Below the pieces are notes generated by a model. It worked only from the letters and a program-made list of their open reading frames with translations, ran no database searches and was not told the origin of the DNA. Both the position numbers and the translations under genes were made by a program. Below are positions 990-52,408 of a stretch of 58,458 nt of DNA, piece by piece; positions within the stretch are counted from its first letter, which is position 1; each line of letters opens with the position of its first letter. Source of the stretch: Minisyncoccota bacterium (GTDB lineage: Bacteria; Patescibacteriota; Minisyncoccia; Phycocordibacterales; Phycocordibacteraceae); assembly GCA_035547315.1 (NCBI GenBank), contig DASZVH010000001.1:1-58458 (forward strand). Direction: 5' to 3'.

Positions 990-1935
990 AGTTCTCGGGC
1001 GCGGGCGTATAGATCCAGAAGGCGGCGCCGGGCGCCACCGCGCTCGGCAGGCCGAAGGATTCGCTCCCGGGCAGGAAGGAATAGAGCGCGGTGTACTCGA
1101 TCCCGGCCCAGCCGATCGAGGCGAACGCGTCGTCGAGGTCGGCCGTCGAGGTCGCATAGCTGCCGATAAGATTCCACCCCGCGGCGAGCGCGCGCGAGGG
1201 CGGCGTGCGGCCGGGAGCGAGATAGGGCGTGCCGTTGCCGGAGAGCTGCGCCTCCGCGCGTGCGCGGACGAAGTAGCCAGCGCCCGGGGCTGTCGCGGCG
1301 AGCGTGGAGAGCTCCGGGTGCGCCGGGTCGAAGACGAGCCAGCCGCCGACCGCCGCCGGATCGGCCAGGTCGTAGCTCCAGACCGAGTCGATCGCCGGGC
1401 TCGCGAAGACCTGCGCCGCGCCCGGGTCGTCGGGTACCACCGGCAGCGAGAGCAGATTCCACCCCCGCGCGAGCGGGAGCGCGTACTCCTCGGGAGTGAA
1501 GTCGGGCGGCGGCTCCTGCGGCGGGAGCGCGACCGCGACCGTCTTGCTCGTGTCGTAGAGCGCATCGCTCTCCTGCGCGGTCGAGGTGGCGGCGAGCGCG
1601 AGCGTGTAGGTGCCGGGCGCGACCACGGCCCCGGCGGCGTCCGTGCCGTCCCAGAGCTTGGGCTCGGGGTTGGTGACGCCGCTTGAGGCATAGAGCGTGC
1701 GGATGCTCTCGCCTGAGGGGCCGAGCACCATAAGCGAGACCTTCGCCCGCTCGGAAAAGCCGAAGGTTATCGCAGTGGAGGTCGCGAGCGCCGGCGAAGA
1801 GGTCGCGGAGGGGTAGATCGTCACGGGCGCGACCTCATAGTGCGTGAGCGCAAGCGCGTCCGCGCGCGCCCAAAGCGGCGCGAGGAGCGCGAGCAAAACA
1901 GCCGATACGGTGGCGGGCCGTGCGAGCGGGGCCAT
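970..1935 (-). CDS. Secreted surface protein with FlgD-like Ig domain and two GWNL repeats
   Basis: Signal peptide from MAPLARP; FlgD-Ig-like V..GPSGESIRTL...WDGTDAAGAVVAPGTYT; repeats LARGWNLLSLP...PGAGYF and LAAGWNLIG...PGAAFW. Confidence 0.65.
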   Translation of the reverse strand: MAPLARPATVSAVLLALLAPLWARADALALTHYEVAPVTIYPSATSSPALATSTAITFGFSERAKVSLMVLGPSGESIRTLYASSGVTNPEPKLWDGTDAAGAVVAPGTYTLALAATSTAQESDALYDTSKTVAVALPPQEPPPDFTPEEYALPLARGWNLLSLPVVPDDPGAAQVFASPAIDSVWSYDLADPAAVGGWLVFDPAHPELSTLAATAPGAGYFVRARAEAQLSGNGTPYLAPGRTPPSRALAAGWNLIGSYATSTADLDDAFASIGWAGIEYTALYSFLPGSESFGLPSAVAPGAAFWIYTPAPENYVPSDL

Positions 1936-1979
1936 CGCGATACAGTCTAGCGCGCAGGGCGCGGCGCGCACGCGCGTTA

Positions 1980-2405
1980 TCAACAGCGCGCTGAGGCGCG
2001 GTCCATCGCGGCGTTGGCAAGCGAGTCGGCGTCGGCGTTAAGCTCGCGCGGGATGTGGGTGAAGATGACCGATTTGAAATTGGGGACGAGCTCTTTGACC
2101 TTTGCGGCCAAGGGCTTCATGTTCGGGTGCCTGATCTTGTACTCGCCGCGCATCTGCTTGATCACGAGCTGCGAGTCCATCTCGACGAGAATCTCCGTCT
2201 CCTTCGTGCGTTCGCCGAGGAGCTCGGCAAGGCGCTCGAGCGCGCGCAGGATAGCGGTATACTCCGCGACGTTGTTGGTGGTCTCGCCGAGGTACTCGCT
2301 GACCTCGAGCACGGTCTCCCGCCTCTCGCTATAGACGACCGCGCCGCTTCCGGCCGGCCCCGGGTTGCCGCGCGCCCCGCCGTCGGCATGGATAGTGAAC
2401 TTCAT
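1980..2405 (-). CDS. rnhA: Ribonuclease HI
   Basis: Motifs ADGGARGNPGPAG, TNNVAEY, MDSQLV, NADADSLAN. Confidence 0.95.
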   Translation of the reverse strand: MKFTIHADGGARGNPGPAGSGAVVYSERRETVLEVSEYLGETTNNVAEYTAILRALERLAELLGERTKETEILVEMDSQLVIKQMRGEYKIRHPNMKPLAAKVKELVPNFKSVIFTHIPRELNADADSLANAAMDRASARC

Positions 2406-4063
2406 GCGGGCACTATACCAATCAGGCGGAGCCGCGGCGCGCGGGAGAAGGAGTCGCGCTCGAGGTGCCCCAGGAGAGTCGCTTGCGAGCCGGGGGAGAG
2501 CGCGTCAGCGTATGTGGCGAGCGCGCCTTTGGCGAAGAAGGCGACGGCCTCGAGCGGCTTCTCGGATTCGTCGCGCGCGACCTTGAATTTCACATGCTCC
2601 TTCCCCTTGCCGAAGCGCTCGACGCGCGCGATCTCGCAGCCGTGCAACCGCAACAGGGGTTTCTCGTTCCCCTCGCCATAGGGGGCAAGCCGCTCGAGTT
2701 TGGCGAGGAGCGGGCCGTCCGCCTCGCACGGCGCGAGGTCGGCATCCGGCTCCCGCTCGACCGGCGCCTCCTCGACCGGCAAGGTGGCGAGCGCCGCGAC
2801 GAGCCGGTCCTCGAGCGAGAAGACGGCCTCATCGAGTACCGTGAACCCGCCGGAGAAAGCGTGCCCGCCGAATTCCGCAAAGGTATCCTCCGCCGCCTGC
2901 ATGAGCGCGACCATGTGGGTCGCGCCCTCGGAGCGGCACGAGCCTTTCAGGGTGTCGTTGCCCTCCCTGCCCCAGAGGAAGACGGGCCGCGCATATTCTT
3001 CCGCGATGCCGTTCGCGACGAGCCCGAGGAGCGCGGGGCGCCAGGAGGGGTCGCCGAGCGCGATGACGCTTTGCAGGTTCGAGCGATCCGCAAGCCGCTC
3101 GCGCACCGCGCGGGTGATCGCGCCCGTCTGCGCTTTGCGCTCCCGGTTCAACTTCTCCAGTTTCTTCGCGAGCGCGTCGGCCTCGCTCTCGTCGGCGGTG
3201 ATGAAGAGCCTGAACGCCTCGAGCGGGTCATCCATGCGGCTCGCGGCGTTGACGCGCGGGGCGAGCATGAAGCCGACGTCGTCCTCAGTGATGCGCGACT
3301 GCTCGAGGCGCATGAGGCGGCAGAGCTTCCCCACCCCGATACGCGGCGATTTCCGGAGCACGAGGAGGCCGTAGCGCGCGATGAGGCGATTGTCGCCTAC
3401 GAGCGGGACCATATCGGCGATAGTCGCGAGCGCCGCCATGTCGAGGAGCCACTTCTCCCAGCCCTCCGGCACGCGCTCCCGCAGCTCGGGCGCGACCGAA
3501 AGCGTCGCGCAGACGAGCTTCCAGGCGAGGCCGGCGCCGCACCAGCTCTTGAATGGCGCGGTTTCATCCGGGTGCGCGTTCGGGTCCACCACGATGCCCT
3601 CCGGCAAACCATCGCCGGGGAGATGGTGGTCGGTGACGATCGTGTCCATCCCGAGCGCGCGGGCGCGCGCGATCACCTCCGTATCCGTGATCCCGACGTC
3701 GGCGGTTATGAGGAGTTTCGCGCCGTTCTTCGCGAGCTTCTCGACCCCCGCGCTATTAACGCCGTAGCCCTCCAGATGCCGGTGCGGGATATAGTTCTCA
3801 AAATTCGCGCCCGCCTTCTTCAAGAAATCATGGAGGATGACGGCCGCGGGGATGCCGTCGCAGTCGTAGTCGGTCCACGCGGCGATTTTTTCTCCGGAAA
3901 GGATCGCAGCCGCAAGCCGCGAAGCGGCTTGCGGCATATTCTTGATCGTGAGCGGGTCGACGAGGTGCTCGTCGTAGGAGGGGTTGAGGAATTTCTCGGC
4001 CTCCTCGGTGGTCGTGATGCCGCGCTTTGCGAGCAGGAGGTTCGTCAGGTCGTCGTACGGCAT
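2402..4063 (-). CDS. recJ: ssDNA-specific exonuclease RecJ
   Basis: Motifs DYDCDG, DHH, TIADMVPL, PRVNAASR, KGSCRS, GGHAFSGG, PYGEGNEKP. Start taken at MPYDDL. Confidence 0.95.
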   Translation of the reverse strand: MPYDDLTNLLLAKRGITTTEEAEKFLNPSYDEHLVDPLTIKNMPQAASRLAAAILSGEKIAAWTDYDCDGIPAAVILHDFLKKAGANFENYIPHRHLEGYGVNSAGVEKLAKNGAKLLITADVGITDTEVIARARALGMDTIVTDHHLPGDGLPEGIVVDPNAHPDETAPFKSWCGAGLAWKLVCATLSVAPELRERVPEGWEKWLLDMAALATIADMVPLVGDNRLIARYGLLVLRKSPRIGVGKLCRLMRLEQSRITEDDVGFMLAPRVNAASRMDDPLEAFRLFITADESEADALAKKLEKLNRERKAQTGAITRAVRERLADRSNLQSVIALGDPSWRPALLGLVANGIAEEYARPVFLWGREGNDTLKGSCRSEGATHMVALMQAAEDTFAEFGGHAFSGGFTVLDEAVFSLEDRLVAALATLPVEEAPVEREPDADLAPCEADGPLLAKLERLAPYGEGNEKPLLRLHGCEIARVERFGKGKEHVKFKVARDESEKPLEAVAFFAKGALATYADALSPGSQATLLGHLERDSFSRAPRLRLIGIVPA

Positions 4064-4091
4064 GCGTCTCCCAATGATACACTGAGCGCAC

Positions 4092-4478
4092 ATGGAAAAT
4101 CCCTCGACTCCGCCCGAGACAAACTGCATCTTCTGCAAGATCGTGCGCAAGGAGATCCCGGCCGAGATCGTCTACGAGGACGACGACTTCCTCGCGTTTC
4201 TCGACATCCACCCGCAGGCACCCGGCCACGCGCAGGTGATCCCCAAGCAGCACTACCGCTGGGTCTGGGACGTCCCGAACGCAGGCGCGTATTTCGAAGT
4301 TGCCAAGAAGGTCGCGCTCGCCGAGCGCAGCGCTTTCGGCGTCGAGTGGATTCTCGCCAAGATCATCGGCGACGAAGTCCCGCATGCGCATATCTGGGTG
4401 TTTCCCGAGAATGGCGCAAAAAGCGACAAATCCGACCTCGACGGCAACGCCGCTAAGCTCCGCGCCGCACTCTCTTGA
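4092..4478 (+). CDS. HIT family nucleotide hydrolase
   Basis: N-terminal CIFCKIV and histidine triad VPHAHIW. Confidence 0.92.
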
Positions 4479-5322: not shown

Positions 5323-5592
5323 TTATGAGTCGAGATCCCGTCTCAGTTCTTCTATCGAGTGGAATTGTTTCGCCTTGCCTTCTCGGAACTCTCTCATCGC
5401 GGCGTCGATGGCGCGGCGTGTCCTCGCGTTCGGGATGAGCGGCTCAAGATCGAGGTGCGGATCGCGGACGAACGCGCGCAAGGAGGCGTTAACGACGACG
5501 GAGAGCGGAACGCCGAGTTCTTTCGCGGCCCTCTGCGCCGCCTTTTTTATCTTGGCGTCGGTACGGACGTTGAGGATGACTTTCGTGTTCAT
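5323..5592 (-). CDS. Type II antitoxin, RelB/DinJ family
   Basis: RHH-like LNVRTDAKIKKAAQRAAKELGVPLSVVVNASLRAF and PNARTRRAI. Confidence 0.88.
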   Translation of the reverse strand: MNTKVILNVRTDAKIKKAAQRAAKELGVPLSVVVNASLRAFVRDPHLDLEPLIPNARTRRAIDAAMREFREGKAKQFHSIEELRRDLDS

Positions 5593-5602
5593 CGGATAAG
5601 TA

Positions 5603-5615
5603 TATACATTGTATA
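5603..5615. promoter_or_regulatory. Candidate TA autorepression operator
   Basis: Perfect palindrome TATACA-T-TGTATA in the AT-rich spacer just upstream of the antitoxin. Confidence 0.5.
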
Positions 5616-6795: not shown

Positions 6796-7539
6796 CTACG
6801 CAAGCGCTTTCACCAAGGCGGAGAACATCGCCGCGTCGACCGACGCGTGCCCGACGAGGAAGCCGTCGACCTGGCTGCCGCCCGCAAGCGCGCGGATGTC
6901 GGCCGCCTCCACCGAGCCGCCGTAGAGCACGCGGGCCGTGCCGCCCTTGCCGGGCATGAGCGCGAGCGCGATCTTGCGGATATAGAGCAGCATCTCGGCG
7001 AGGTCGGCGGGCTCGATCGCCTCGGCGGCGCTCTTGCCGATGGCCCAGACGGGCTCGTAGGCGAAGATGACCGCGCGGCGCTCGCGCGGCGAGAGCGGCG
7101 CGAGCGCCGCCGTGATCTGGTCGCGGACGAAGCCGAGGTACTCGCTCGCCGCGTCGCGCTCGCGCTCGCCGACGCAGAGCACCGGCGCGAGCCCGTGCGC
7201 GATCGCGTGCTGGAGCTTCTGCGCGATCTGCGCGCCGCTCTCGCCGGCGGCGCGCCGCTCGCTATGCCCCACGATCGCGTAGGCGGCGCCGAGGTCGGCG
7301 TAGACCTGCGCGCTCACCTCGCCCGTCTGGGCGCCGCCCGTGGTGGCGGAGAGGTCCTGCGCGGCGTAGGCGATCCGCGAGCGGTTGCCCGGCGCCAGCA
7401 TGCCCAGGTGCGGCGCGCAAGGCGCGAGCGCGATCTCGATCTTTGGGTAGCGCGCCGCGAGCCGCTTGGCGGCGGCGGCGAGCCGCTTGGCGCGCGCAGC
7501 GTCTTCCACGTACGCCTTCCAGTTGGCGAGGATGAGCAT
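6796..7539 (-). CDS. tpiA: Triosephosphate isomerase
   Basis: ANWK, GHSERR, AYEPVWAIG, LYGGSV. Confidence 0.97.
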   Translation of the reverse strand: MLILANWKAYVEDAARAKRLAAAAKRLAARYPKIEIALAPCAPHLGMLAPGNRSRIAYAAQDLSATTGGAQTGEVSAQVYADLGAAYAIVGHSERRAAGESGAQIAQKLQHAIAHGLAPVLCVGERERDAASEYLGFVRDQITAALAPLSPRERRAVIFAYEPVWAIGKSAAEAIEPADLAEMLLYIRKIALALMPGKGGTARVLYGGSVEAADIRALAGGSQVDGFLVGHASVDAAMFSALVKALA

Positions 7540-7576
7540 ATGGGGAAAGTATAGCGCGGCCTGCCCGGGCGCGGGC

Positions 7577-10876: not shown

Positions 10877-12091
10877 TCAGCCGATCGCCGATGAGAGCGA
10901 GTAGATCGGCGCGATCATCGAGACCGCGAAGACGCCCACCGCCGCGCCGATAAAGAGCATCAGCACGGGCTCGATGATCGTCGAGAGATCTTTGGTGCGC
11001 TCCTCGACGTCTTCTTCGTAGAACTCCGCGATCTTCTTCAGCATATCGGCGACCGAGCCAGTCTCCTCTCCGACCGCGGCCATGTCGCTCATGAGGACGG
11101 GATAGAGCTTGGGGTGCGCGGCGAACGCGCTCGACATCGGCTGGCCCTTCTCGACCGCGTCCTTGGCCTCGCCCACCACGCGGCCGAAGACGTTCTCTCC
11201 CACCACCTCGCTCGCGATCGCGAGCGCCTCGACCACCGGCACGCCCGAGGAGAGGAGCGAGGAGAGTGTGCGCGCGGCGCGCGCGGCGAAGGTCTCGCGC
11301 ACGAGCTCGCCCACGACCGGGACATAGAGCGCGAGCGCGAGCACCGCCTTCTTTCCCGGCCGCGAGCGGACGAAGAGCACGAGTCCCGCGCCCAAGAACG
11401 CGAGGCCGCCGAGCACCAGCGCCACGTGCGCGACCATGAAGTTCGAGACGTCGGTGATGATCCGGGTCGCGAGCGGCACCTTGACCTTGAGCGAGACGAA
11501 GGTGGCGGTCAGGGTCGGAACGACAAAGATCATCATGAGCACACCCACCACGAGGATCGCGGAGACGACGATGGCCGGGTAGATCATCGCGCCCTTGACC
11601 TTGCGGATGAGCGCGTTGCCGCGCTCCATCTGCAGCGCCACCACCGCGAGCGCGGGCGCGAGGCCGCCGGACTCCTCTCCCGCCTTGACCATCGAGATGA
11701 AGAGCTCGGAGAAGAGCTTGCGGTGCTTGCGGAGCGCCTCGTTGAAGGAGGAGCCCTGCTTCACCGATTCCTCGACGTCGGCGAGTATCGCCTTGAGCCG
11801 CTTGTTGCCGGATTGCCGCTCGAGGACCGAGAGCGCGCGTGAGAGCGAGAGCCCCGCCGAGAGCATCGCCGAGAGATTCTTGGTCATGATGATGAGCTCG
11901 GTCTCCTTGACCCCGGTGCCGAAGGTGATGTCGAGCCAGGAAGGCAGCGCGAAGCCGCCGCCCTGCGCGAGGGCGCTCACCGTGCCGCCCTCTTTCTCCA
12001 CCTGGTCATAGACCGCGAAGCGCGAGGCCGCCTCGATGACGCGCTTTTCCGCGCTGCCGTCCGCCTTCTTCACCGTGACGCGGAATTTCAT
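10877..12091 (-). CDS. pilC: Type IV pilus platform protein PilC (T2SSF)
   Basis: LSAMLSAGL, GEESGGL, YP, LLSSGVP, GEETG, IEP. Confidence 0.95.
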   Translation of the reverse strand: MKFRVTVKKADGSAEKRVIEAASRFAVYDQVEKEGGTVSALAQGGGFALPSWLDITFGTGVKETELIIMTKNLSAMLSAGLSLSRALSVLERQSGNKRLKAILADVEESVKQGSSFNEALRKHRKLFSELFISMVKAGEESGGLAPALAVVALQMERGNALIRKVKGAMIYPAIVVSAILVVGVLMMIFVVPTLTATFVSLKVKVPLATRIITDVSNFMVAHVALVLGGLAFLGAGLVLFVRSRPGKKAVLALALYVPVVGELVRETFAARAARTLSSLLSSGVPVVEALAIASEVVGENVFGRVVGEAKDAVEKGQPMSSAFAAHPKLYPVLMSDMAAVGEETGSVADMLKKIAEFYEEDVEERTKDLSTIIEPVLMLFIGAAVGVFAVSMIAPIYSLSSAIG

Positions 12092-12120
12092 TCATATAAA
12101 TCGTAGCACGCGCGACAACG

Positions 12121-15599: not shown

Positions 15600-15651
15600 G
15601 GATAAAAGTATAGCGCGCCGAGACTGTGTCTCGACGCGCTGCTGGTGAGAA

Positions 15652-18303: not shown

Positions 18304-18364
18304 TTCGCAGACGCAAAGCGCGCGGCGGCCTTTGGCCGCCGCGCGCATTGCTATAATCGCGGCA

Positions 18365-18592: not shown

Positions 18593-18614
18593 TTCCTGCT
18601 ATCATCCGCGTACT

Positions 18615-19223: not shown

Positions 19224-19251
19224 CCGCGCCGGAAACGTCTATATTGGAGCG

Positions 19252-30050: not shown

Positions 30051-30069
30051 GTTAGCGAGCACTATATCA

Positions 30070-32828: not shown

Positions 32829-32889
32829 ACGCAACCGATGGTAGCACAACGCGGTTTATAAAGACGGACGCACTCAAGAGGAGCTACCC

Positions 32890-34128: not shown

Positions 34129-34162
34129 GGGGCCATTCTACCCTGGCGCGCCGCGCGCGATA

Positions 34163-37500: not shown

Positions 37501-38046
37501 GCCGGAGAGGACGCCGCCTGCCAGGCCGTGCTCGAGGATTGACTCGCTGATGAAGAGCTCGCCGCGGCTCTGGATCATCGGCGGGAAGAAGAGCGTGTCG
37601 CCGCCCGAGCCCTCCGGCAGCGCGACGCCGTCGTAGCGCAGCCGCGCGTGCGCAAGCGAGAGGCGCGCCCCCGGCTCGACCACGATCGTGTTCACGTTGA
37701 AGACGCTCGGCGCCGAGGTCGCGGCGAGCGCGGCGGTATCGCCGCCGTAGCTCGCGTCGGCGATATCGGCGAAGACGACCTCCTCGGAACTCGAGGCGCT
37801 TCCCGCGACGAGCGCTCCCGAGATGTCGAAGGCGCCCTGCGGGTCGAGCTTGACCACGACGCCCGGCTCGATCGTGAGCGTCGCGCCCGCGGCGATCGAG
37901 AGGTCGGTATAGACGAGATACGGGCTCCGGTCGGGGGTCCAGGTGGCGTCGCTCGCGATGGATTCGGGCGCGACGGTGGCGGCGCGCGCGGAGAAAGGCG
38001 CGAGACAAAGGAGAAGCCCTGCGAGCATGAGCGTGCGAGCGCGCAT
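34594..38046 (-). CDS. Large secreted protein: beta-helix N-terminus plus LCAT/PLA2-like alpha/beta hydrolase
   Basis: Signal peptide from MRARTL; oxyanion FIPGTEASRL, PYDWR, nucleophile AHSNGG, GTPQFGTP, GDGTV (Asp), HQDL (His); DIDGDGVID near the C-terminus. Confidence 0.85.
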   Translation of the reverse strand: MRARTLMLAGLLLCLAPFSARAATVAPESIASDATWTPDRSPYLVYTDLSIAAGATLTIEPGVVVKLDPQGAFDISGALVAGSASSSEEVVFADIADASYGGDTAALAATSAPSVFNVNTIVVEPGARLSLAHARLRYDGVALPEGSGGDTLFFPPMIQSRGELFISESILEHGLAGGVLSGWFGEDTASTTIEGTTIGASQKGGRGVDLAGGTLRLAEDTIAEASSVEGGLLLAGPESAPLALEWDASDLADTQVFPPPPYANEIEEYIAVDEGTSVSAAPGATLAFGPHGGLDISGAFSAQGNAEAPVTLAPSAQAQAAGWPGIAIESGGTLSLAHAALDHGGEEWDRSLCADDSVDASPCSSALFNAGGTLSISDTSFSGSIGRDVLEEEGASDLERVHLPAGARVASGELTIHESDIGAAGAFGIENDGSATTSAEDDYWGDPSGPAEPAGNPEGAGASVSGAVSYAPWLSADPFLAPPPGHSSVLFIPGTEASRLYMKLSSNTEKRVWEPASDADLKYLAINLDGSSANNLYTKDIIDSIWSQDPGIIARLVKAIAPGDLEVYGGLEQFLDGLVASSTIKEWRAYPYDWRYDPLDVVKNGTLTEEPDGSIARVYLADVVAQMASSSPTGKVTIIAHSNGGLLAKALTQELGPSAADYIDRIILVGTPQFGTPAAVGSLLHGDGQSIGLGFGLDLVSAKAVRAEAEVIPDAYALLPSPAYFTHVATPVVEFSDNALLKPFVDAYGSAISAFGAFESFIDDGKGIDEQFDNSTLKAPLPLPVSAIQKAEEGHQALDSWQPPAGIAVSAIAGWGSLTPATLDYTKAAFNILSCGRSDPLNPAHCELKPILQHTEKKTEDGDGTVVSPSALGDIADAWYFNLKKYGTDFHQNFSHQDLTSAQPIQETLSDLIKGQPISNFYLTSLKPSTKKDPLVIISSHSPVNIIATDASGNETGVVPAAGTGLALTVAHIPESAVDLESGEEYLTLPQEGSYSVAAAGYAQGPTTLEVEEVDAEGAVQSEESFAAIPTTASTTMAFSIEGGAASEPQVDIDGDGVIDLEVASDTPAALAPADALSLLRQEVAALSARPGVKNRLLAQIEKLAGEAGELASAQADVSWLETLIGAQAGVKLSEDQAASMLGLIQYLKL

Positions 38047-38146
38047 GAACTCATACAGGATACGACGAATACGCCCGGCGCGTGTAGAGAAGGTTATCCC
38101 CAGTTCTTGGGCAGCGGCGGCGCGCATGAGGTATACTGGCTGCACC

Positions 38147-41100
38147 ATGCCGTCGTTCTCAAAGCGGTTCGTTTTCGCGGCAGCCGTGCTCCTTCTTCCG
38201 CTCTCCTTCGCCCTCCCCGCGCACGCCGCCGAGCTCTCCGAGGACCAAATCAACTCGCTCCTCGCGCTCCTGACCTCCTTCGGCGTCGACCAAGCCACGC
38301 TCACTACCGTCGACGACATCCTCCACGGCATCACGCCGCCCGCCGCCAACTGCCCTGACCTCGAGCGTACCTTGGGCGAGGGGATGAGCGGCGCCGACGT
38401 TACCGCGCTTCAGCAGTTCCTCGCGGCGGACCCGACCGTCTATCCCGAGGGCCTCGTTACCGGCTATTTCGGCTCTTTGACGCAGGCCGCGGTACAGCGT
38501 TTCCAAGCCAAGCAAGGCATCATCAACTACGGTACTCCCGCCACCACAGGCTACGGCCTCGTGGGGCCTAAGACGCGCGCGACTATCGCCTCGGTCTGCC
38601 AGTTGAGCACCGTTGGTACGGGCGGCTACACAGGCGGTGGCGAGGGCGGAGGGGGTGGCGGCGGTGGTGGTGGCGGTGGTGGCGGAGGAGGAGGGGGCGG
38701 CGGGGGAGGAGGAGGGGGCGGCGGAGGGGGCGGAGGCGGCGACACTAACCCGCCCACGACGCCCGGCAATCTCCAGGGTACGCCGACCACCACGACCGTC
38801 GCGCTCTCCTGGAACGCCTCGAGCGACGACACGGGCGTCGCCGGCTATGACGTCTACGAAAACGGCAGCATGATCGCCTCGGGCTCGGACACGAGCTATG
38901 TCGCGGCAGGTCTTACCTGCGCTACGAGCTACACCTTCGCGGTCGACGCCTACGATGCCGCCGGCAACCGCTCGGGCCAGGCGAATATCCAGGTAACCAC
39001 CCAGGACTGCGGCGGAGGGGGCGACACCAACCCGCCCACGACGCCCGGCAGCTTCGGCGCGAGCGGCGTTACCGCCTCGCAGGTCCAGCTCTCCTGGGGC
39101 GCCTCGAGCGACGACACGGGTGTTGCGGGCTACGACATATATAAGAACGGAGTTTCCTCCTGGTCGACCGCCTCGACCAGCTATTCCTTCACCGGCCTTA
39201 CCTGCGCGACCTCCTACACCTTCGGCGTCGACGCCTACGACGCCGCGGGCAACCACTCGGGCCAGGCGACCACCGCGACCACGACGCTCCCCTGCGTCGA
39301 CACGCAGCCGCCCTCCACCCCTGCGCCCGCCGTGGCCAGCTCATCGTCCGACTCGATAACGGCGCAGTGGAGCGCCTCGAGCGACGATACCGGCGTCGCG
39401 GGCTATGACGTCTACGAGAACGGCACCAAACTCGGCAGCACGACGAACCTCTCTTACGCCTTTACCGGCCTCTCCTGCGGTACGAGCTACACGCTCGGCG
39501 TCGACGCCTACGACGGCGCGGGCAATCACTCCGCGATCGGCACGGTGCAGGGCTCGACGCTCTCGTGCGGCGGCGGGGGCGGCAGTGGCGCGCAGATCGC
39601 CATCCCGACCTATCCGGAGAAGTCAGTGGTCATCGCGACGACGAACGTCCTCAACTACGGCGCCGACCCGACCGGGAAGACCGACTCGACCAACGCCTTC
39701 CAGCAGGCGCTCGATGCCGCGTTCGCCAAGGGCGGCGGCACGGTCTGGGCGCCGGCGGGCACGTACCGCTTCAACGGCCAGATCACGGTCCCCTCGAGCG
39801 TTACGCTGCGCGGCGACTGGAAACAGCCCACCGACTCCGACAAATCGGTTGGCGGTACCATCCTTGCGATTTACAACACGAGCAGCAGCTTCGTCCTCCT
39901 CGACGGTGCCGGTGGGCTCGAGGATTTGAATTTTTGGTATCCTTCGCAATCTATCACGAGCATTAATACGGCAGTTCCAGTGACGGTAGCGCTCGATCCG
40001 GACGCGCCGCACTCCTTGCGCAATCCTTCGGTTCTGGACAGCACATTCGTCAATCCGACCATGATTTTCGACGCGCGCGGAGCCTCTGGTAAGGGGATTG
40101 AACTTGACAATATATACGGTTCGCCGCTCGTGACCGGTGTCATCCTGGCCGACACGACAAGCGCTTGCCGTGTAAGCGACCTCCACCTCGGCGCCGTCTA
40201 TTGGGCCTCCTCGGGCCTCTCCGGCGCACCCTCGTATTCCGCGCTCGCGGACTACACCCGCACGCACACGATCGGCGCGGAGTATGACGATAATTGGCTC
40301 TCCTCGAACGTCTCACTCGATGACTTCGAGATAGGGCTCTATTATGCCGGCAAGTACAAGGGACCTAACAATCCGGTCGTGACCGGCGAGACCATCACGG
40401 GGCTCGAGATCAGTGGCGCCAATATCGGCATCAAGATCAGCCAGTACAACTTTTTCATGAGCGTTGCGTCGATAAGCGCTACCGCGGGCACGAATCCAAC
40501 CGCGATACTGATCACAAAGAATGATGCGAAGGGTAACCCTACCACGGGCCGGTTGGTGTTTGACGACACCACGCTCTCCTCGAGCGGCGCGGACATCACG
40601 AACCAATCGTCATCCTTCGATATCGACGCGGCCAATGACACCTTTGCCTCATGGGGCGGGTATGCGATCACCGTTGCCGGCGGCCTTGCGCTCGAGGGCG
40701 ATCACTTCTCTCAAGCGGCTTCGGGCAACACCAAGGATCTGTCGCTTGGAAGCTCAGTGCCGCGGGCCTTTATCGTCGGCAATACCTATCCGAGTGGGCA
40801 AAGCGCGATCGCCATGGATAGCGCGGCGAATCCGAGCAATGTTTGGGTTGCCGAGGGCCTCACTGATACAGTGCTTGCTGCACTCGGTATAAGCGGGTTT
40901 CCGAGCTCAGGCTACACGGTTGATGCGCTTGCCCACCTCGCGCCGCCGCAGCCCAAGCCCGCCCGCACTGGTACCGACTCCCTTTATGATGTCACCGCCT
41001 ACGGCGCGAAGGCAGACTGTATCGACAGCGATTTCAACGATTCGGGCATTATGACCGGCGGTTGCACCGACAACACAGCAGCATTCCAAGCGGCGCTCAA

Positions 41101-43624
41101 TGCGGCCGGTAATGCAGGCGGCGGCACCGTGTATGTGCCCGGCAGTCCGGCGACCGGCATGGGGTACTTTTTCACCGGCAACCTCCGTGTGCCCACGGGA
41201 GTTGAGCTTACCGGTGCGCCACAGGATTCCGCATTCCACACGCTTGATACGCAGACCGCGCTTTTCGTGCAAGGGAATTCTTCACCCTTCATCGCGCTTT
41301 CCTCGAATGCGGGCGTGCGTGGCCTCGCGTTCTGGTATACCAACCAAGACGCCTATCATCAGGCGCCGTACAATGGGCCGCAGCCTTTCGGCTACACCAT
41401 TCAGGCGCAAGGCGCCGGGGATTGGGTCGAGAATGTCGTTAACGCAAATGCGACCTATGGACTCGATTTCGGCACTTACGGCTCGACCGGCCACTTTATC
41501 GACAACTACCAAGCAGCGGTGCTCCGCGACGGTATCTTCGTGAGCAAGAGCACGAGCGGTTTTATTGGGAATCTGCAGACAGTCTTTACTTTCTGGCTCG
41601 ACCTTGGGAAAGGCTCCGGCGACAACCAGAAAATTCTCTCGTACCCCGAGCCTTTCGGGAATCCTCCCTCAGACTTGGATCAAAACGGAAACAGAGATAC
41701 TGACACCGGCGAACCCGCGGATGCGTATGCTTCGGGGAGTGGGCTTCTTTTGGGGAGTGCCAAGAACGAAGTCATCCAGAGCGTGTATCTCCACGGCCCC
41801 CATTACGGTATCCAGACAGTAAACGACAACGGCGGGCCCAGCTTCACGCTTCTTAATTTCGGCTCTGAGACGTATACCGGCCTTGATGTCGAGGCGCTCG
41901 ATCCGGCCGGCGCCAAGATACTCGCGGCCCAGTACCACACGATCGCGGACAGCTGCTATCCCGCCAGCTGCGGCGACGCGGTGGGCAAGCCTTATCTCAT
42001 CGTCGGCAGCGGCGTCGCGCCGACCACGCCGATCACCTTCTTCTCCTACGCCAATCATTCGATGACGCCGATCGGCTTCGATCTCTCCGGAGGAAAAACC
42101 ATCATCGAGCAATACTCAAGCGACCTGCAGGCTAACACAATCGCGAGCATTCAGACGGCAGCGGCAATCCACGGGGCTCTGACCGGCTTCGCGCTTCTCG
42201 ACGGGAAATTCCTCAATTCGCTCACCGCGCCGGCTCGGCAAGGCGGTCCGAGCAATCCGAACGCGACGGTCGTTTCCGACGACCTGAGTCCCAATGTTGC
42301 GCTCGTGGGCATCTGGGCGGTCGATAATCCGGCTCAAGTGAGCGGTCCGGTTGATCTCACCTACCAGCCTTGGTTCACGGGCGGAGGCAGCGGCCCCGAT
42401 ACGACGCCGCCTTCCGCGCCGACCAATCTTGCCGGCACCGGCGCGGGGGGCGTGGCGGCGCTCACCTGGACTGCCTCCACCGACGACGTTGGTGTCGCGG
42501 GCTACAAGGTGATCCGCGACGGCGCGCAGATCGCGACCACCACGCTCGCGCTCTACACGGATCTTGGGGTAACGGTCGGTCAGACTTACACTTATAAAGT
42601 CAAGGCCTTCGACGCGGCGGGCAATGTCTCAGGCGCTTCCAATGCGGCGCAGGTGACGATCCTCGGCCACAGCGGTCTTGGCACCCCTTCAGGCGGAGGC
42701 AGCTCGCAGCTTCAGGAGGGTGCCGGCACCTGCAACGCACCGGCAGCAAACCTCGCGTTTGGCGCCACCGGCGCGGCGGTGACCACCCTCCAGCAAGCGC
42801 TCATCGCGCTCGGCTACTCGCTCCCGGCCGGCGCCACCGGCTACTACGGCAGCCAGACCGTCGCGGCGGTCGAGGCCTTCCAAGCCGCGCACGGGATCGT
42901 CTCCTCGGGGAGCGCCGCGACGACCGGCTTCGGCGCCGCGGGCCCCACCACGCGCGCGGCGCTCGAGAGCGTCTGCGGCAGCGCGCCCTCCTCTCCTGTG
43001 AGCGGCACCGGCGCGGCCGGCGGCACCTCGGGCGCGGCCGGCGGCACCGGCGGCTCGGCCCCGGCGAGCGGCGCGGGGAGCGCCGGCGGCGGCAGCTGCC
43101 CGCTGCTGCCTACGACGCTCGCCGAGGGCTCCTCGGGCACCGCGGTCACCGCGCTGCAGCAGCTCCTGCTCGCGCTCGGCTACTCGCTCCCGGCCGGCGC
43201 CACCGGCTACTACGGCAGCCAGACCGTCGCGGCGGTCGAGGCCTTCCAGATTTCCCATACGATCGTCTACTCGGGCACGCCGGCCTCCACCGGCTTCGGC
43301 GCCGCGGGGCCGCGTACCGTCGCTGCGCTCGCTGCCGCATGTGGCTCCTCCTCGAACAGCCCAACCAACCCCTCTTCGGAGACTTCGGGCGGTCTCGGCA
43401 CGTCGACGCAATCGGGCACCGGCGCCGTCGGCGGAGTGAGCTCGGGCACGGGCACGGGCGGCACCGGCGCGGCCGGCGGCACCTCGGGCGCGGCCGGCAG
43501 CACCAGCTCCGGCACCGGCACCTCGGGCGCAGCCGACAGCACCAGCACCAGCTCCGGCACCGGCACGGCGACCTCGACGAGCAAGGGTTCTGCGGTCGGC
43601 GGCCTCAGCCCCTCCTCGCGCTAG
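38147..43624 (+). CDS. Giant secreted protein (1825 aa): 3 peptidoglycan-binding domains, 4 FN3, two Pectate_lyase_3-like beta-helix glycosidase modules
   Basis: PG-binding DVTALQQFL...TGYFGSLT.AAV..FQ (x3); FN3 DT.PP..P...W.AS.DD.GVAGY (x4); NVLNYGADPTGKTDSTNAFQ and YDVTAYGAK...DNTAAFQ with GGGTV..P.G.Y; poly-Gly linker. Confidence 0.85.
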   Translation: MPSFSKRFVFAAAVLLLPLSFALPAHAAELSEDQINSLLALLTSFGVDQATLTTVDDILHGITPPAANCPDLERTLGEGMSGADVTALQQFLAADPTVYPEGLVTGYFGSLTQAAVQRFQAKQGIINYGTPATTGYGLVGPKTRATIASVCQLSTVGTGGYTGGGEGGGGGGGGGGGGGGGGGGGGGGGGGGGGGGGGDTNPPTTPGNLQGTPTTTTVALSWNASSDDTGVAGYDVYENGSMIASGSDTSYVAAGLTCATSYTFAVDAYDAAGNRSGQANIQVTTQDCGGGGDTNPPTTPGSFGASGVTASQVQLSWGASSDDTGVAGYDIYKNGVSSWSTASTSYSFTGLTCATSYTFGVDAYDAAGNHSGQATTATTTLPCVDTQPPSTPAPAVASSSSDSITAQWSASSDDTGVAGYDVYENGTKLGSTTNLSYAFTGLSCGTSYTLGVDAYDGAGNHSAIGTVQGSTLSCGGGGGSGAQIAIPTYPEKSVVIATTNVLNYGADPTGKTDSTNAFQQALDAAFAKGGGTVWAPAGTYRFNGQITVPSSVTLRGDWKQPTDSDKSVGGTILAIYNTSSSFVLLDGAGGLEDLNFWYPSQSITSINTAVPVTVALDPDAPHSLRNPSVLDSTFVNPTMIFDARGASGKGIELDNIYGSPLVTGVILADTTSACRVSDLHLGAVYWASSGLSGAPSYSALADYTRTHTIGAEYDDNWLSSNVSLDDFEIGLYYAGKYKGPNNPVVTGETITGLEISGANIGIKISQYNFFMSVASISATAGTNPTAILITKNDAKGNPTTGRLVFDDTTLSSSGADITNQSSSFDIDAANDTFASWGGYAITVAGGLALEGDHFSQAASGNTKDLSLGSSVPRAFIVGNTYPSGQSAIAMDSAANPSNVWVAEGLTDTVLAALGISGFPSSGYTVDALAHLAPPQPKPARTGTDSLYDVTAYGAKADCIDSDFNDSGIMTGGCTDNTAAFQAALNAAGNAGGGTVYVPGSPATGMGYFFTGNLRVPTGVELTGAPQDSAFHTLDTQTALFVQGNSSPFIALSSNAGVRGLAFWYTNQDAYHQAPYNGPQPFGYTIQAQGAGDWVENVVNANATYGLDFGTYGSTGHFIDNYQAAVLRDGIFVSKSTSGFIGNLQTVFTFWLDLGKGSGDNQKILSYPEPFGNPPSDLDQNGNRDTDTGEPADAYASGSGLLLGSAKNEVIQSVYLHGPHYGIQTVNDNGGPSFTLLNFGSETYTGLDVEALDPAGAKILAAQYHTIADSCYPASCGDAVGKPYLIVGSGVAPTTPITFFSYANHSMTPIGFDLSGGKTIIEQYSSDLQANTIASIQTAAAIHGALTGFALLDGKFLNSLTAPARQGGPSNPNATVVSDDLSPNVALVGIWAVDNPAQVSGPVDLTYQPWFTGGGSGPDTTPPSAPTNLAGTGAGGVAALTWTASTDDVGVAGYKVIRDGAQIATTTLALYTDLGVTVGQTYTYKVKAFDAAGNVSGASNAAQVTILGHSGLGTPSGGGSSQLQEGAGTCNAPAANLAFGATGAAVTTLQQALIALGYSLPAGATGYYGSQTVAAVEAFQAAHGIVSSGSAATTGFGAAGPTTRAALESVCGSAPSSPVSGTGAAGGTSGAAGGTGGSAPASGAGSAGGGSCPLLPTTLAEGSSGTAVTALQQLLLALGYSLPAGATGYYGSQTVAAVEAFQISHTIVYSGTPASTGFGAAGPRTVAALAAACGSSSNSPTNPSSETSGGLGTSTQSGTGAVGGVSSGTGTGGTGAAGGTSGAAGSTSSGTGTSGAADSTSTSSGTGTATSTSKGSAVGGLSPSSR
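42804..43248 (+). repeat. 79-bp exact direct repeat (42804-42882 and 43170-43248)
   Basis: TCGCGCTCGGCTACTCG...GAGGCCTTCCA occurs twice, within the duplicated PG-binding domains. Confidence 0.9.
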
Positions 43625-43680: not shown

Positions 43681-43752
43681 CTTTAGTAACGCTTTCGGCG
43701 TCACTCGGCTCTTGCCGGGGTTTATTCGTGTCTTAGCAATAATTTATCCACC

Positions 43753-44952
<1,200 letters not shown>

Positions 44953-48085: not shown

Positions 48086-48448
48086 ATGGCTATCTTCGGC
48101 GGCAATAAAAAGGAGGGGAAGAAGGAGAAACGCATATCGCGTGCGCGGGCGGCGGCGCTCGCTCCCGGCCGCGCGCACGCGATCGTGCTTCACCCCTGGT
48201 ACACCGAGAAGGCGCTCCTCGCCACCGACACGGGCGTCTACGGCTTCGCGGTCGCCCGGGACGCCACCAAGCCGCAGATCGCCGCGGCGATCAAGGAGCT
48301 CTACGGCGTCGCGCCGCGCAAGGTGGCCATCGTGAACACGCCGGGGAAGCGCGTCTCTAAGCGCACGCGCCCGGGCAAAGCGACTCGCGCCGCGCGCCGC
48401 AAAGCGTACGTCTACCTCAACGCCGGCGAGAAGATCGAGTTCGCCTAA
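48086..48448 (+). CDS. rplW: 50S ribosomal protein L23
   Basis: P..TEK, ATKPQIAAA, RKAYV.L...I; position in the S10 cluster. Confidence 0.9.
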   Translation: MAIFGGNKKEGKKEKRISRARAAALAPGRAHAIVLHPWYTEKALLATDTGVYGFAVARDATKPQIAAAIKELYGVAPRKVAIVNTPGKRVSKRTRPGKATRAARRKAYVYLNAGEKIEFA

Positions 48449-48473
48449 TATCTAGAACCTAGCGCCTAACTCC
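48446..48473 (+). repeat. 28-nt intergenic motif repeated at 55437-55464
   Basis: TAATATCTAGAACCTAGCGCCTAACTCC vs TAACATCTAGAACCTAACCGCTAACACC, 23/28 identical. Confidence 0.75.
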
Positions 48474-48478
48474 TGTTT

Positions 48479-49327
48479 ATGAAATCTTATCGCCCCACCA
48501 CCAAGTCCCGCCGCTTCATGACCACGCTGCCGTATCGGCAGCTGCTCTCGGGCGACGCGCCGCACAAGCCGCTCTTGAAGAACAAGAAGGACCGCGCGGG
48601 CCGCAACGGCTTCGGCCGTATCACGACGCGCCACCAGGGCGGCGGCAACAAGAAGCGCCTGCGCGAGGTCGACTTCCGCTTCGATAAGCTCGATATCCCC
48701 GCCCGATTCGAGACCGTCGAGTACGACCCGTACCGCTCCGCGTTCATCGCGCTCGCGCTCTACGCCGACGGCGAGCGCCGCTACCACATCGTCCCCAAGG
48801 GCGCCAAGGTCGGCGATACGTTCGTAACGGGCGAGAACGCTCCGCTTAAGGACGGCAACCGCATGCCGCTCGGCAAGATCCCGGTGGGCACTTTCGTCTA
48901 CAATATCGAGCTCAAGCCGCGCGCAGGCGGCGTCCTGGTGCGTTCCGCGGGCTCCTTCGCCGAGGTGGTGGCGCACGATGCGGGCTACGCGCAAGTGAAG
49001 CTTCCCTCGAGCGAGGTGCGCCGCGTCAGCGACCTCTGCTACGCCTCGGTCGGCTCGGTCGGCAACGAGGAGTACAACCTCGTGGTCATCGGCAAGGCCG
49101 GCCGCTCCCGCTGGCTCGGCATCCGCCCGACGGTGCGCGGCTCGGCGATGAACCCGGTAGACCACCCGCACGGCGGCGGCGAGGGCAAGCAGGGCCGCGG
49201 CCTCCGGCGCGCGAAGTCCCTCTGGGGCAAGCCGACCGGCAAGGGGCAGAAGACCCGCACGCCGAAGAAGTACTCCAATGTCTTCATCGTCTCCCGCCGC
49301 CACGCCGGCAAGCGCAAGAAGGGCTAA
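48479..49327 (+). CDS. rplB: 50S ribosomal protein L2
   Basis: GRNGFGRIT.RHQGGG, EYDPYRSA.IA, RP.VRGSAMNPVDHPHGGGEG. Confidence 0.99.
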   Translation: MKSYRPTTKSRRFMTTLPYRQLLSGDAPHKPLLKNKKDRAGRNGFGRITTRHQGGGNKKRLREVDFRFDKLDIPARFETVEYDPYRSAFIALALYADGERRYHIVPKGAKVGDTFVTGENAPLKDGNRMPLGKIPVGTFVYNIELKPRAGGVLVRSAGSFAEVVAHDAGYAQVKLPSSEVRRVSDLCYASVGSVGNEEYNLVVIGKAGRSRWLGIRPTVRGSAMNPVDHPHGGGEGKQGRGLRRAKSLWGKPTGKGQKTRTPKKYSNVFIVSRRHAGKRKKG

Positions 49328-49337: not shown

Positions 49338-49366
49338 GAAGAAACCCGCCGGCGGCGGGTTTCTTC
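49338..49366. terminator. Hairpin after rplB
   Basis: GAAGAAACCCGCC-GGC-GGCGGGTTTCTTC. Confidence 0.7.
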
Positions 49367-49384
49367 TTGCGCTATACTCCCGGC

Positions 49385-50215
49385 ATGAATCTGGCGGAGC
49401 TCAAGAGGGAGGGCCGGCTCTATGTGAAATATCCGGAGGAACTGCGCGCCGGGGTCGAGGAGGCCGTCGAGGCTTGGAGGAGATTCTGCGCGCTCTCGCG
49501 GGAACAAAAGCTCAAGTTCCCATATGCGGGCGACACCAACGTCTCGGGCAACGGCTACGAGCTCAAGGAGGGCGAGGCGATCGACCTCAAGGAGAACTTC
49601 CATCTGCGCGCCTCGGGCAAAGACGAGCTCGCGCGCAAAGCGGAGCGCGTGGACGACTTCATCACGCCTGCCTTCGTCAAGAAGGCGACCGCGCTCCCTG
49701 CGCTCATGGCACCTCTCTTGCAGGAATTCGGGCGCCAGGTGGAAGAGGAGCTCGGCGTCGAGGGCTTCGAGGAGGATCTGATGAGCATGCAAGAGAATTG
49801 GCTCGTGCGCTTCCTCCATTATTTCCCCGCACGCAGCGCAGGCGAGGAGATCGCCGCGCCGCACAACGATAAAGGCGGCTTCACCCTCCACCTCTACGAG
49901 AGCCATCCGGGCGTCGAGCGGCTCACCTTCGATACTAAGGAGTGGGTGCCGATGGATTTGGACCCTGGCGAGACCGTCATCTTCGCGGGCAATGGGCTCC
50001 AGCATCGTTCTAAGAATCAACTGCGCGCGCTCTCGCATCGCGTCCTCGCGACGCCCGAGACCGCTACGGAGGGCCGCTACTCGGCAGTCTGCTTCTTCTC
50101 CTTCAAGAACGCGAAATATTTCGACAAGTCGCGCTTCGGCTCCCAGCAGCTCTATCCGCCGGGCTCCTTCTACGACATGCCCTTCGAGAAGTTCGACGAG
50201 TTCTTCATCTCCTAA
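49385..50215 (+). CDS. 2-oxoglutarate/Fe(II)-dependent oxygenase (IPNS-like)
   Basis: HxD (PHNDKGGFTL), distal His (LSHRV), RxS (GRYS), DLKE; TATACT 6 nt before ATG. Confidence 0.85.
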   Translation: MNLAELKREGRLYVKYPEELRAGVEEAVEAWRRFCALSREQKLKFPYAGDTNVSGNGYELKEGEAIDLKENFHLRASGKDELARKAERVDDFITPAFVKKATALPALMAPLLQEFGRQVEEELGVEGFEEDLMSMQENWLVRFLHYFPARSAGEEIAAPHNDKGGFTLHLYESHPGVERLTFDTKEWVPMDLDPGETVIFAGNGLQHRSKNQLRALSHRVLATPETATEGRYSAVCFFSFKNAKYFDKSRFGSQQLYPPGSFYDMPFEKFDEFFIS

Positions 50216-51364: not shown

Positions 51365-51371
51365 TTCGTAT

Positions 51372-51596
51372 TTAGTGATGATGGACGGGCGGGGGGAAGA
51401 GATAGCGGAGTACTCGATCAATCCCGGGGAAGCGCGAATAGCGCGGGCATCCGCAATCGAGGAGTCTGCGCACCTTGGCGCTCGCTTTCTCCAGATCGGC
51501 TTTGATCAGAGAATGCAGCCGATCTCGAATTTCTCTGTCGCGCGCCTCCTTTTCGGGCGAGCGCGTGCGCTGCGGTTCGATGCAATATTCGCACAT
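51372..51596 (-). CDS. Small hypothetical protein with CxxC and CxC
   Basis: MCEYCIEP...DCGCP; AAGGAG 7 nt before ATG and an extended -10 upstream. Confidence 0.5.
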   Translation of the reverse strand: MCEYCIEPQRTRSPEKEARDREIRDRLHSLIKADLEKASAKVRRLLDCGCPRYSRFPGIDRVLRYLFPPPVHHH

Positions 51597-51640
51597 GTCT
51601 GAACTCCTTTCCGCCCGCACTCTAGCATAGAAAAAGGCCG

Positions 51641-52408
51641 CTAGGGGTAGCCCGCCTTGAGGCCGGTCACTTGGGAAAGGGGGATGTCGAGCTCGATGGT
51701 GCCGGCAGCATAAGGTGCGACGGCGTAGGGAGGGAAAAGGAGCACGAGGTCGCCGTTCGCGAGATAGAACCATTGGAAGTTGGCGGCGTCCGGCGCCGTA
51801 CCCTCGTCGAGCATCTGCGAGTCAACCTCGTCGGGCGATACGCCCTCATGCGCGGCGATGACAGCGGGAAGATTTGCTCGGGCGTAGGCGCTCAAGAACC
51901 CCACATAGTTCGTGCTGATGGTGAAGAGGTCCGAGAGCGAGAGCGGCGCGCCGGTTTTAGCATCGAAGGTGTAGGTGAGGTAGGTGCCGTTCCCGTGCGC
52001 GCCGAGCGTATCCGCGTAGAGCGAGAAGATATAGGAGACGGTCGTCGGCGAGGAGGTCGCCTCATATGAAACGTCGAAGGTGTATTTGCGACCATCTTGC
52101 CCGAGCCCTATATACGCGGCGTCCGCCGGGATGATGGAGCCGTAGTCCGTGTCGCTCTTGAACTGCGCGACGGCGTTTTGGACTCCGGCGGCCATGAGCG
52201 CGACGGCCGCCTTGTCCGCGGCCGCCCCCGCAGAGGCCTTAAGGGACGTGGTGGCCGGCCACTTTGCGTCTATCGAGAAATAGGGGCTCTCCTCAGTAAT
52301 CGCCGAGGTGCCGGGTGCCGCCACCGGGGCAGGGCGCAAGAGGGCATAGGTGGCGATGCCGCTCACGATGACCACGAGGGCGATGGTGCCGATGAGGGTG
52401 TGTTTCAT
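51641..52408 (-). CDS. Membrane-anchored DUF3298/RsiV-PdaC-like protein
   Basis: N-terminal TM; GAHGN...TYTFDAKTG..LSLSDLF; F......L.L.F.PY.VAPYA.G...L.IP. Confidence 0.8.
   Translation of the reverse strand: MKHTLIGTIALVVIVSGIATYALLRPAPVAAPGTSAITEESPYFSIDAKWPATTSLKASAGAAADKAAVALMAAGVQNAVAQFKSDTDYGSIIPADAAYIGLGQDGRKYTFDVSYEATSSPTTVSYIFSLYADTLGAHGNGTYLTYTFDAKTGAPLSLSDLFTISTNYVGFLSAYARANLPAVIAAHEGVSPDEVDSQMLDEGTAPDAANFQWFYLANGDLVLLFPPYAVAPYAAGTIELDIPLSQVTGLKAGYP

Follow-up and report, generated by a model that had tools for sequence, protein, structure and literature searches.

A large part of bacterial diversity belongs to the Candidate Phyla Radiation (CPR, or Patescibacteria), whose members are nearly all uncultured. 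Sigma-70 promoters of the extended −10 (TGn) type are known from Escherichia coli and from Gram-positive bacteria. In group C of the GeneMarkS-2 classification, a Pribnow box lies 6–8 nt before starts and 25–50% of operons are predicted to be leaderless; this group consists mostly of Actinobacteria (Mycobacterium tuberculosis, Streptomyces) and Deinococcus-Thermus (Deinococcus deserti), and the CPR is not named in the paper that defined it (PMC6028130). Tsurumaki, Saito, Tomita and Kanai (RNA 2022) described a subgroup of Parcubacteria that lacks both the anti-Shine-Dalgarno (anti-SD) sequence of 16S rRNA and the ribosomal protein uL1; the rRNA and ribosomal protein losses were described, the consequence for initiation was left open, and the word "leaderless" does not occur in that paper (PMC9297842). 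Here, we analysed a 58,458-bp stretch of CPR DNA (hereafter the window; it is contig C1 of its genome), in which a first-pass annotation had noticed a TANNNT hexamer a few nucleotides before the ATG of many genes and had read it as the −10 box of leaderless mRNAs. Our analysis supports the view that the hexamer belongs to an extended −10 promoter placed at the start codon, and it makes it very probable that such promoters give rise to leaderless or near-leaderless mRNAs translated without Shine-Dalgarno (SD) pairing.

The genome amounts to 641 kb in 13 contigs, with 65% GC and 98.8% completeness. Its closest uS3 loci in public genomes, with identities up to 82%, were found in metagenome-assembled genomes (MAGs) of Candidatus Kaiserbacteria, Paceibacterota and Parcubacteria. 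This places the genome in the CPR/Patescibacteria, for which its size is normal. Judged by this marker, the organism is an ultra-small, uncultured member of Candidatus Kaiserbacteria (Parcubacteria/Paceibacteria).

We called genes with a simple self-written program based on codon log-odds, which picked starts by coding potential alone and was blind to the upstream sequence. The expectation that the box would stand out genome-wide against shuffled controls was borne out, with a strong enrichment of TANNNT at −12 to −16. Among 573 genes, the hexamer began at −12 in 87, at −13 in 50, at −14 in 32, at −15 in 29 and at −16 in 20, against 6 at −11 and a background of 4–5 per position. In all, 210 of the 573 genes were boxed, that is, had a TANNNT beginning between −16 and −12. 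If any 5'-proximal ATG or GTG was allowed as the start, 280 of 582 genes (48%) were boxed, where chance would give ~12 (1.4% of 873 candidates). The spacing between hexamer and start in these 280 genes was 6 nt in 102, 7 nt in 71, 8 nt in 46, 9 nt in 36 and 10 nt in 25. Divergently oriented genes were boxed in 60% of cases. The hallmark of group C, a box ~6–8 nt before the start, was found here in 37–48% of all genes and 60% of divergent ones, with a peak at 6–7 nt.

A possibility was that this pattern merely reflected base composition or start-codon choice, for the gene caller is crude, and TANNNT is common in AT-rich relatives, in which the per-genome signal is noisy. Several controls speak against it. 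Starts had been picked without sight of the upstream sequence, and among the genes whose start is fixed by the open reading frame (ORF) alone, 60 of 139 (43%) were boxed. Shuffling the 60 nt upstream of each gene over 200 rounds gave 25.5 ± 4.8 boxed genes with a maximum of 37, which translates into a z-score of ~38, and only 1.4% of internal ATGs carried a box. A test that required no gene calls concurred: TANNNT-N6-7-ATG occurred 134 times per spacing as compared with 49–60 at control spacings, and 64% of the ATGs so placed opened a coding ORF, as compared with 18% of all ATGs. The stricter pattern TGNTANNNT-N6-ATG was counted 39 times genome-wide, while its reversal was never found (0 occurrences) and a spacing of 13 gave 3. 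With the conservation of the geometry in orthologous genes (see below), we consider that these controls refute an artefact of composition or start choice, which is scarcely credible.

Boxed and unboxed genes also differed in start codon usage. Boxed genes started with ATG in 192 cases, GTG in 14 and TTG in 2 (92% ATG), and unboxed genes with ATG in 263, GTG in 69 and TTG in 29 (73% ATG). The bias of boxed starts towards ATG would be expected if transcripts have to begin with a purine and if leaderless translation depends on AUG.

The bases around the hexamer point to a promoter. In a hexamer-aligned logo, T (48%) and G (62%) stood at −3 and −2 ahead of the hexamer, as in an extended −10 TGn element, and the −35 position (17-nt spacer) showed a weak TT only. 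The consensus was TGnTAnnnT, with the forms TGnTAtAaT and TATACT, and k-mer counts agreed (TGCTA, 61 vs 1.8 expected; TATACT, 49 vs 0.7 expected). The hexamer at −12 to −7 from the A of the ATG is at the canonical placement relative to a +1 start site. A single sigma-70 gene is present in the genome, and it includes region 3 (Sigma70_r3 matched once). A promoter scan that demanded a −35 match retrieved 7 sites in 20 kb vs 2.3 in shuffles; because the sites are of the extended −10 type, in which the −35 is weak, it misses most of them. A full promoter, TTGACT-N17-TAGGAT, lies ~140 nt upstream of the 16S gene.

The same box, with or without TGn, was found before 24 of the 45 tRNA genes, beginning 14–16 nt before the mature 5' end, that is, 2–4 nt further out than before an ATG. 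As tRNA genes are not translated, the element is not bound to translation. Boxed tRNA genes of the window are tRNA-Pro (29363–29434), tRNA-Gly (29979–30050) and tRNA-Arg (30070–30141), all on the minus strand; two of the boxes are:

29435–29448, minus strand: TAGAGT box beginning 14 nt before the mature 5' end of tRNA-Pro
30051–30066, minus strand: TGa-TATAGT box beginning 16 nt before tRNA-Gly

Primary tRNA transcripts predicted from such boxes would have leaders of only ~2–4 nt, though RNase P RNA is encoded (C4:115824–116187).

We considered whether TANNNT might instead act in RNA, as an A/U-rich non-SD ribosome-binding or "standby" signal within a longer 5' untranslated region, in the manner of GeneMarkS-2 group B (Bacteroidetes). 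Leadered genes of a genome without an SD system would need some non-SD signal, and the bases upstream of unboxed starts are mildly depleted in G. However, a ribosome signal does not account for a TGn-extended box at a fixed distance before untranslated tRNA genes, nor for a fixed T, A and T in the hexamer with TG two bases upstream, which is the sigma-70 extended −10 pattern. The peak is, moreover, one base wide, lies at the canonical −10-to-+1 distance and collapses at −11, and the box often comes right behind a terminator-like hairpin. An RNA signal thus appears highly improbable, and the TANNNT element is best supported as an extended −10 sigma-70 promoter. It resembles its counterparts in E. 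coli and Gram-positive bacteria by the TGnTAnnnT consensus, by a −35 that is weak or dispensable and by a sigma factor that includes region 3. It differs from them in that +1 would be placed on the start codon and that this would be the dominant promoter type of the genome.

The geometry was conserved among relatives, as seen in tpiA and xth loci retrieved from 40 of them. For tpiA, a TANNNT lay 6–9 nt before an in-frame ATG in 29 of 30 loci (24 from species of the genus, 6 from other families of the order), with spacings of 6 nt in 18 loci, 7 in 8, 8 in 2 and 9 in 1, and with TGn in 26, and the sequence around the box was not conserved across the loci. The proteins of the six other families are longer by 5–8 residues at the N-terminus, and the box had shifted along with the ATG. 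For xth, the box was found in 26 of 28 loci, 22 of them at exactly 6 nt, so that the 9-nt spacing of the window's own gene is an outlier. Pooling six genomes of the order (60-kb samples, 327 genes) gave 50 boxes at −12 vs a background of ~6.5.

The spacings bear on a further possibility, namely that the promoters are real and mostly leave leaders of 1–4 nt, so that the mRNAs would be near-leaderless and would not use classical recognition of a 5'-terminal AUG. Such leaders would suit the genes with spacings of 8, 9 and 10 nt given above, and the more distant tRNA boxes indicate that the polymerase can be set to leave a few bases. On the other hand, the modal spacing is 6 nt, followed by 7, the xth orthologues stand at exactly 6 nt in 22 of 26 cases, and a −10 box is known to tolerate shifts of 1–2 nt in its distance from the start site. 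We therefore hold a predominance of short leaders to be improbable.

We then turned to the ribosome. The loss of the anti-SD, which the first-pass annotation had proposed to look for in the 16S tail, was confirmed: the tail reads GGAACAAUUCCAAA vs the consensus GGAUCACCUCCUUU, and in the Rfam alignment of the 16S 3' end, GGAACAAUUCCAAA stands against the consensus GGAUcACCUCCUUu, with the CCUCC core gone. CCUCC was found in none of the 24 relatives of the genus or order with an assembled 16S, whose tails differ from one another (GGAACAUAUCCAA, GGAAUAUUUCCAA, GGAUUAUUUCAAA and others). In the same vein, the remark that most of the boxed genes lack an SD motif proved to hold for the whole genome, as GGAG, GAGG, AGGA and GGAGG showed no positional enrichment, and no SD-type k-mer was enriched before boxed or unboxed starts. 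Two substitutes were considered. A co-evolved SD complementary to the altered tail (GGAAU type) was not enriched upstream of starts. Pairing of the 16S trailer just past the Rfam 3' end (AAAUUGGGU) with ACCUAA-type leaders was set aside, the tails of relatives being different. A match to uL1 (PF00687) was absent from this 98.8%-complete genome, and 14 of 14 control genomes had one. A four-domain bS1-like protein is encoded.

With neither CCUCC nor uL1, this small CPR genome belongs to the Parcubacteria subgroup devoid of anti-SD and uL1 (PMC9297842), and the promoter-at-ATG architecture provides the mRNA-side counterpart that was missing from its description. As to group C, the likeness consists in a −10 box 6–8 nt before the start in a large share of genes and in a strong preference for AUG. 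The differences are that in group C the leadered genes carry an SD and 16S rRNA keeps the anti-SD, neither of which holds here, and that boxes are found here also before tightly packed same-strand genes, within the upstream coding sequence. With the Bacteroidota (GeneMarkS-2 group B), the genome shares the genome-wide lack of SD use and the G-poor upstream regions; those bacteria, however, keep the anti-SD and use leadered mRNAs, whereas here the anti-SD has been lost and leaderless mRNAs are predicted for about half of the genes.

Taken together, the enrichment of the box, the loss of the anti-SD and the boxes of operonic genes (see below) support the leaderless interpretation of the first-pass annotation at the level of sequence. 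The mechanism that we propose is as follows. The single sigma-70-type RNA polymerase would use extended −10 promoters with a weak −35. Since the hexamer ends 6–10 nt, and mostly 6–7 nt, before the ATG, transcription would start on the A or 1–3 nt before it, and, judging from promoter geometry, roughly half of the genes would yield leaderless or near-leaderless mRNAs. Their translation would need to proceed without an SD, since CCUCC is missing from the 16S rRNA of this organism and of every sampled relative in its order. As in bacteria in which the process has been studied, the 5'-terminal AUG would be bound directly by the 70S ribosome, or by the 30S subunit with initiation factor 2 (IF2) and fMet-tRNA. 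Unboxed genes would mainly be operon-internal, with a 4-nt overlap, a distance of at most 15 nt from the upstream stop, or a position behind a G-poor unstructured spacer, and would be reached by termination-reinitiation or by SD-independent entry.

Within the window, the 17 sites originally listed turned out to be exact in hexamer, spacing and ATG when the 45 nt upstream of each start were inspected, and 8 further boxed starts brought the total to 25 of 58 called genes. Sites of both kinds are given below with their coordinates, strand, box and spacing:

1933–1949, minus: TAGACT (1944–1949), 8 nt before the ATG of ORF 970–1935
2403–2417, minus: TGg-TATAGT, 6 nt before the ATG of rnhA (1980–2405), the box lying within the 3' end of recJ
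4061–4079, minus: TATCAT, 10 nt before the ATG of recJ (2402–4063); further site, weaker, with long spacing
4078–4094, plus: TGa-TACACT, 8 nt before the ATG of a HIT-family gene (4092–4478), divergent from recJ
5590–5604, minus: TATACT, 6 nt before the ATG of a small ORF (5323–5592); further site
7537–7553, minus: TATACT, 8 nt (or TACTTT, 6 nt) before the ATG of tpiA (6796–7539)
12089–12105, minus: TGc-TACGAT, 8 nt before the ATG of pilC (T2SSF, 10877–12091)
15597–15640, minus: GC-rich hairpin (15640–15612) abutting TATACT (15607–15612), 7 nt before the ATG of pilB (T2SSE, 13851–15599)
18352–18367, plus: TGc-TATAAT, 7 nt before the ATG of ORF 18365–18592, with a hairpin directly before
18600–18617, plus: TGc-TATCAT, 9 nt before the ATG of ORF 18615–19223; further site, with a −35-like TCGACA 16 nt upstream
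19240–19254, plus: TATATT, 6 nt before the ATG of a WDGH-domain gene (19252–19578)
23781–23795, minus: TACAAT, 6 nt before the ATG of the gene for a 672-aa CARDB-domain protein (21765–23783)
26070–26085, minus: TACAAT, 7 nt before the ATG of rarA/mgsA (24924–26072)
26897–26912, plus: TATACT, 7 nt before the ATG of zwf (G6PD, 26910–27935)
29839–29855, minus: TATAAT, 8 nt before the ATG of yraN/UPF0102 (29446–29841)
30169–30183, plus: TGc-TAGTAT, 6 nt before the ATG of the CCA-adding enzyme gene (30181–31662); further site
32826–32843, minus: TGc-TACCAT, 9 nt before the ATG of xth (32028–32828)
34126–34140, minus: TAGAAT, 6 nt before the ATG of a xerC-type recombinase gene (33214–34128)
38044–38062, minus: TATCCT, 10 nt before the ATG of the gene for a 1150-aa LCAT-like protein (34594–38046); further site, weaker
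38132–38149, plus: TATACT, 9 nt before the ATG of the gene for a 1825-aa putative surface protein (38147–43624)
43740–43755, plus: TAATTT, 7 nt before the ATG of ORF 43753–44952; further site
49373–49387, plus: TATACT, 6 nt before the ATG of a 2OG-Fe(II) oxygenase gene (49385–50215), with a terminator-like hairpin and T-run directly upstream
52406–52420, minus: TGc-TATCCT, 6 nt before the ATG of a DUF3298 gene (51641–52408)

Pfam supported the names rnhA, HIT, tpiA, pilC (T2SSF), pilB (T2SSE), rarA (MgsA), xth, xerC, zwf at 26910 and yraN (UPF0102), as well as the WDGH-domain, CARDB-domain, 2OG oxygenase and DUF3298 genes, and identified the gene at 30181 as the CCA-adding enzyme. Domains began within a few residues of the proposed N-termini (TIM, residues 1–245 vs profile positions 1–244; Exo_endo_phos from residue 4; G6PD_N from residue 5), which supports the listed ATGs as true starts.

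Several arrangements in the window attracted our attention. The divergent genes recJ and HIT are 28 nt apart, and their −10 boxes (4074–4079, minus strand; 4078–4083, plus strand) overlap back to back, so that the bidirectional control region (4061–4094) spans ~30 nt in all. Two very large divergent genes are both boxed: the product of 34594–38046 (minus strand; 1150 aa) has an LCAT/PGAP1-like alpha/beta-hydrolase domain, and that of 38147–43624 (plus strand; 1825 aa) has fn3, pectate-lyase-like and three peptidoglycan-binding domains. Their domains suggest that these two may be cell-surface or host-interaction proteins. Three GC-rich hairpins (15612–15640, minus; 18320–18350, plus; 49340–49372, plus) adjoin the −10 box of the next gene or overlap it by a few bases; some have a T-run and are terminator-like, with terminator and promoter merged into a ~45-nt element. 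From the boxes that come right after a GC-rich hairpin (pilB, 18365, 49385), the intergenic unit can be described as a terminator, a −10 box and an ATG within ~45 nt.

The suggestion that even operonic-looking genes have boxes of their own held genome-wide: 40% of the genes lying 1–15 nt behind a same-strand neighbour were boxed, and 58% of those lying 16–40 nt behind. The boxes of such closely following genes were wholly or partly within the upstream gene, as is the rnhA box (2412–2417) in recJ. As for the 229 unboxed same-strand genes, 31 overlapped the upstream gene by 4 nt (ATGA type), 39 had gaps of 0–5 nt and 14 had gaps of 6–15 nt. This overlap with, or closeness to, the upstream stop fits termination-reinitiation or translational coupling. 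Upstream of unboxed starts the bases were mildly G-depleted, and position −1 was C or T in 82%.

A contrasting, leadered arrangement was noticed before some operon-internal genes, two of them in the window:

48444–48481, plus strand: G-poor spacer before rplB, made of heptameric CCTRANN repeats, with stops in three frames
55427–55474, plus strand: heptamer-repeat spacer of the same kind, before rplE (55472–56020)

The rplB spacer (48444–48481) contains neither a −10 box nor an SD. In total, such intercistronic spacers, with 3–5 tandem CCT(A/G)ANN units, precede seven genes of the highly expressed kind, namely rplB, rplE, groEL, rpsD, rpsK, a secF-like gene and an NYN-domain gene; they lie at 48444–48478 and 55427–55471 in the window, at C4:19425–19459 and C8:58600–58629, and, on the minus strand, at C6:88238–88280, C6:88713–88760 and C12:40666–40700. 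They contain 7–15% G and are weakly structured, with a minimum free energy of −2 to −7 kcal/mol in six of the seven and −13.8 at the NYN-gene spacer, the mean being ~−15. Owing to the 7-nt period, each of the three frames meets a stop codon right before the ATG. Similar heptamer runs occur at other ribosomal protein junctions in four other Kaiserbacteria MAGs (loci L014, L041, L061 and L067). Their layout suggests that the spacers may be reinitiation pads.

A broader proposal, doubtful as a whole, would be that Kaiserbacteria and their order initiate with no mRNA–rRNA pairing at all, by two routes. In one, the extended −10 promoter would create a 5'-terminal AUG for the reading of first cistrons and of many packed genes; in the other, highly expressed operon-internal genes (ribosomal proteins, GroEL and SecF) would be reached via a previously undescribed CCU(A/G)ANN pad for all-frame termination and reinitiation. 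In the tRNA genes, a promoter abutting the mature 5' end would be a like design in half of the set.

We also evaluated how far the box extends across the class. AT-rich relatives taken one by one (40–60 kb samples) were too noisy, so we relied on pooled genomes and on whole-genome pattern counts with controls. The TGNTANNNT-N6-ATG pattern exceeded its reversed control in 80 of 81 genomes (72 genera), with 3203 vs 1095 occurrences overall. The 16S tail was readable in 28 class-level genomes; CCUCC was kept in 11 and missing from 17, in line with the published detection rate of ~48%. In pooled ORF profiles, the order of the window had a clear peak, other orders devoid of the anti-SD had a weaker one (26 at −12 and 24 at −13 vs ~10.5), and no −12 peak appeared in the anti-SD-bearing genomes of the class. 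One class-level relative, G082, has a 16S tail (L126) without CCUCC, and yet a perfect AAGGAGG lies 5–8 nt before the start in ~8 of 37 genes sampled from loci L197 and L198 (C1:17001–57000 of that genome); G079 shows a weaker version of this pattern. The mismatch in G082 could stem from a gene cluster that is foreign or mobile, from a second rRNA gene or from mis-binning of the 16S.

Some observations weigh against the interpretation of the boxes as promoters of leaderless mRNAs, or limit its reach. Some boxes are probably coincidental, such as the TAATAT before rplP at 53858, which includes the stop codon of rpsC. The gene caller is crude and covers 81% of the genome, and the fraction of genes boxed 6–10 nt before the start, about 40–50%, varies with start choice (37–48%). 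For about 90 unboxed genes, the gap upstream is long and no signal could be recognized; they are either miscalled starts or leadered genes with SD-independent entry. Spacings of 8–10 nt, as found in ~38% of boxed genes, may correspond to leaders of 1–4 nt instead of none. What was observed directly is the geometry of the motif, its statistics and conservation, the loss of the anti-SD and the absence of SD sites, whereas the transcription start sites and the route of ribosomal initiation are inferred from sequence. Across the class, anti-SD-less genomes (n = 17) had an N6/N13 count ratio of 2.0, as compared with 1.17 where the anti-SD is kept (n = 11; one-sided Mann-Whitney p = 0.02, phylogeny ignored), and the association of the box with anti-SD loss thus appears present but modest.

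A full-text search of a limited literature collection returned no paper describing leaderless genes in CPR, Patescibacteria or Parcubacteria. The mechanism is known from other bacteria, and its description for this lineage appears to be new. The published loss of the anti-SD had left its consequence for expression open; here, a leader would find no room in about half of the genes, and no gene shows an SD site, so that the mRNA side agrees with the rRNA side. This high-GC genome gave an unusually clean box signal. In practical terms, gene-start prediction for such MAGs would call for a leaderless promoter-at-start model with no SD term, intergenic regions can be parsed into compact modules made up of a terminator hairpin, a −10 box and an ATG, and heterologous expression of such genes would need added translation signals. 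For the biology of the group, the mechanism not being new in itself, these data add a free-living or episymbiotic lineage to the short list of systems that apparently do without SD pairing.

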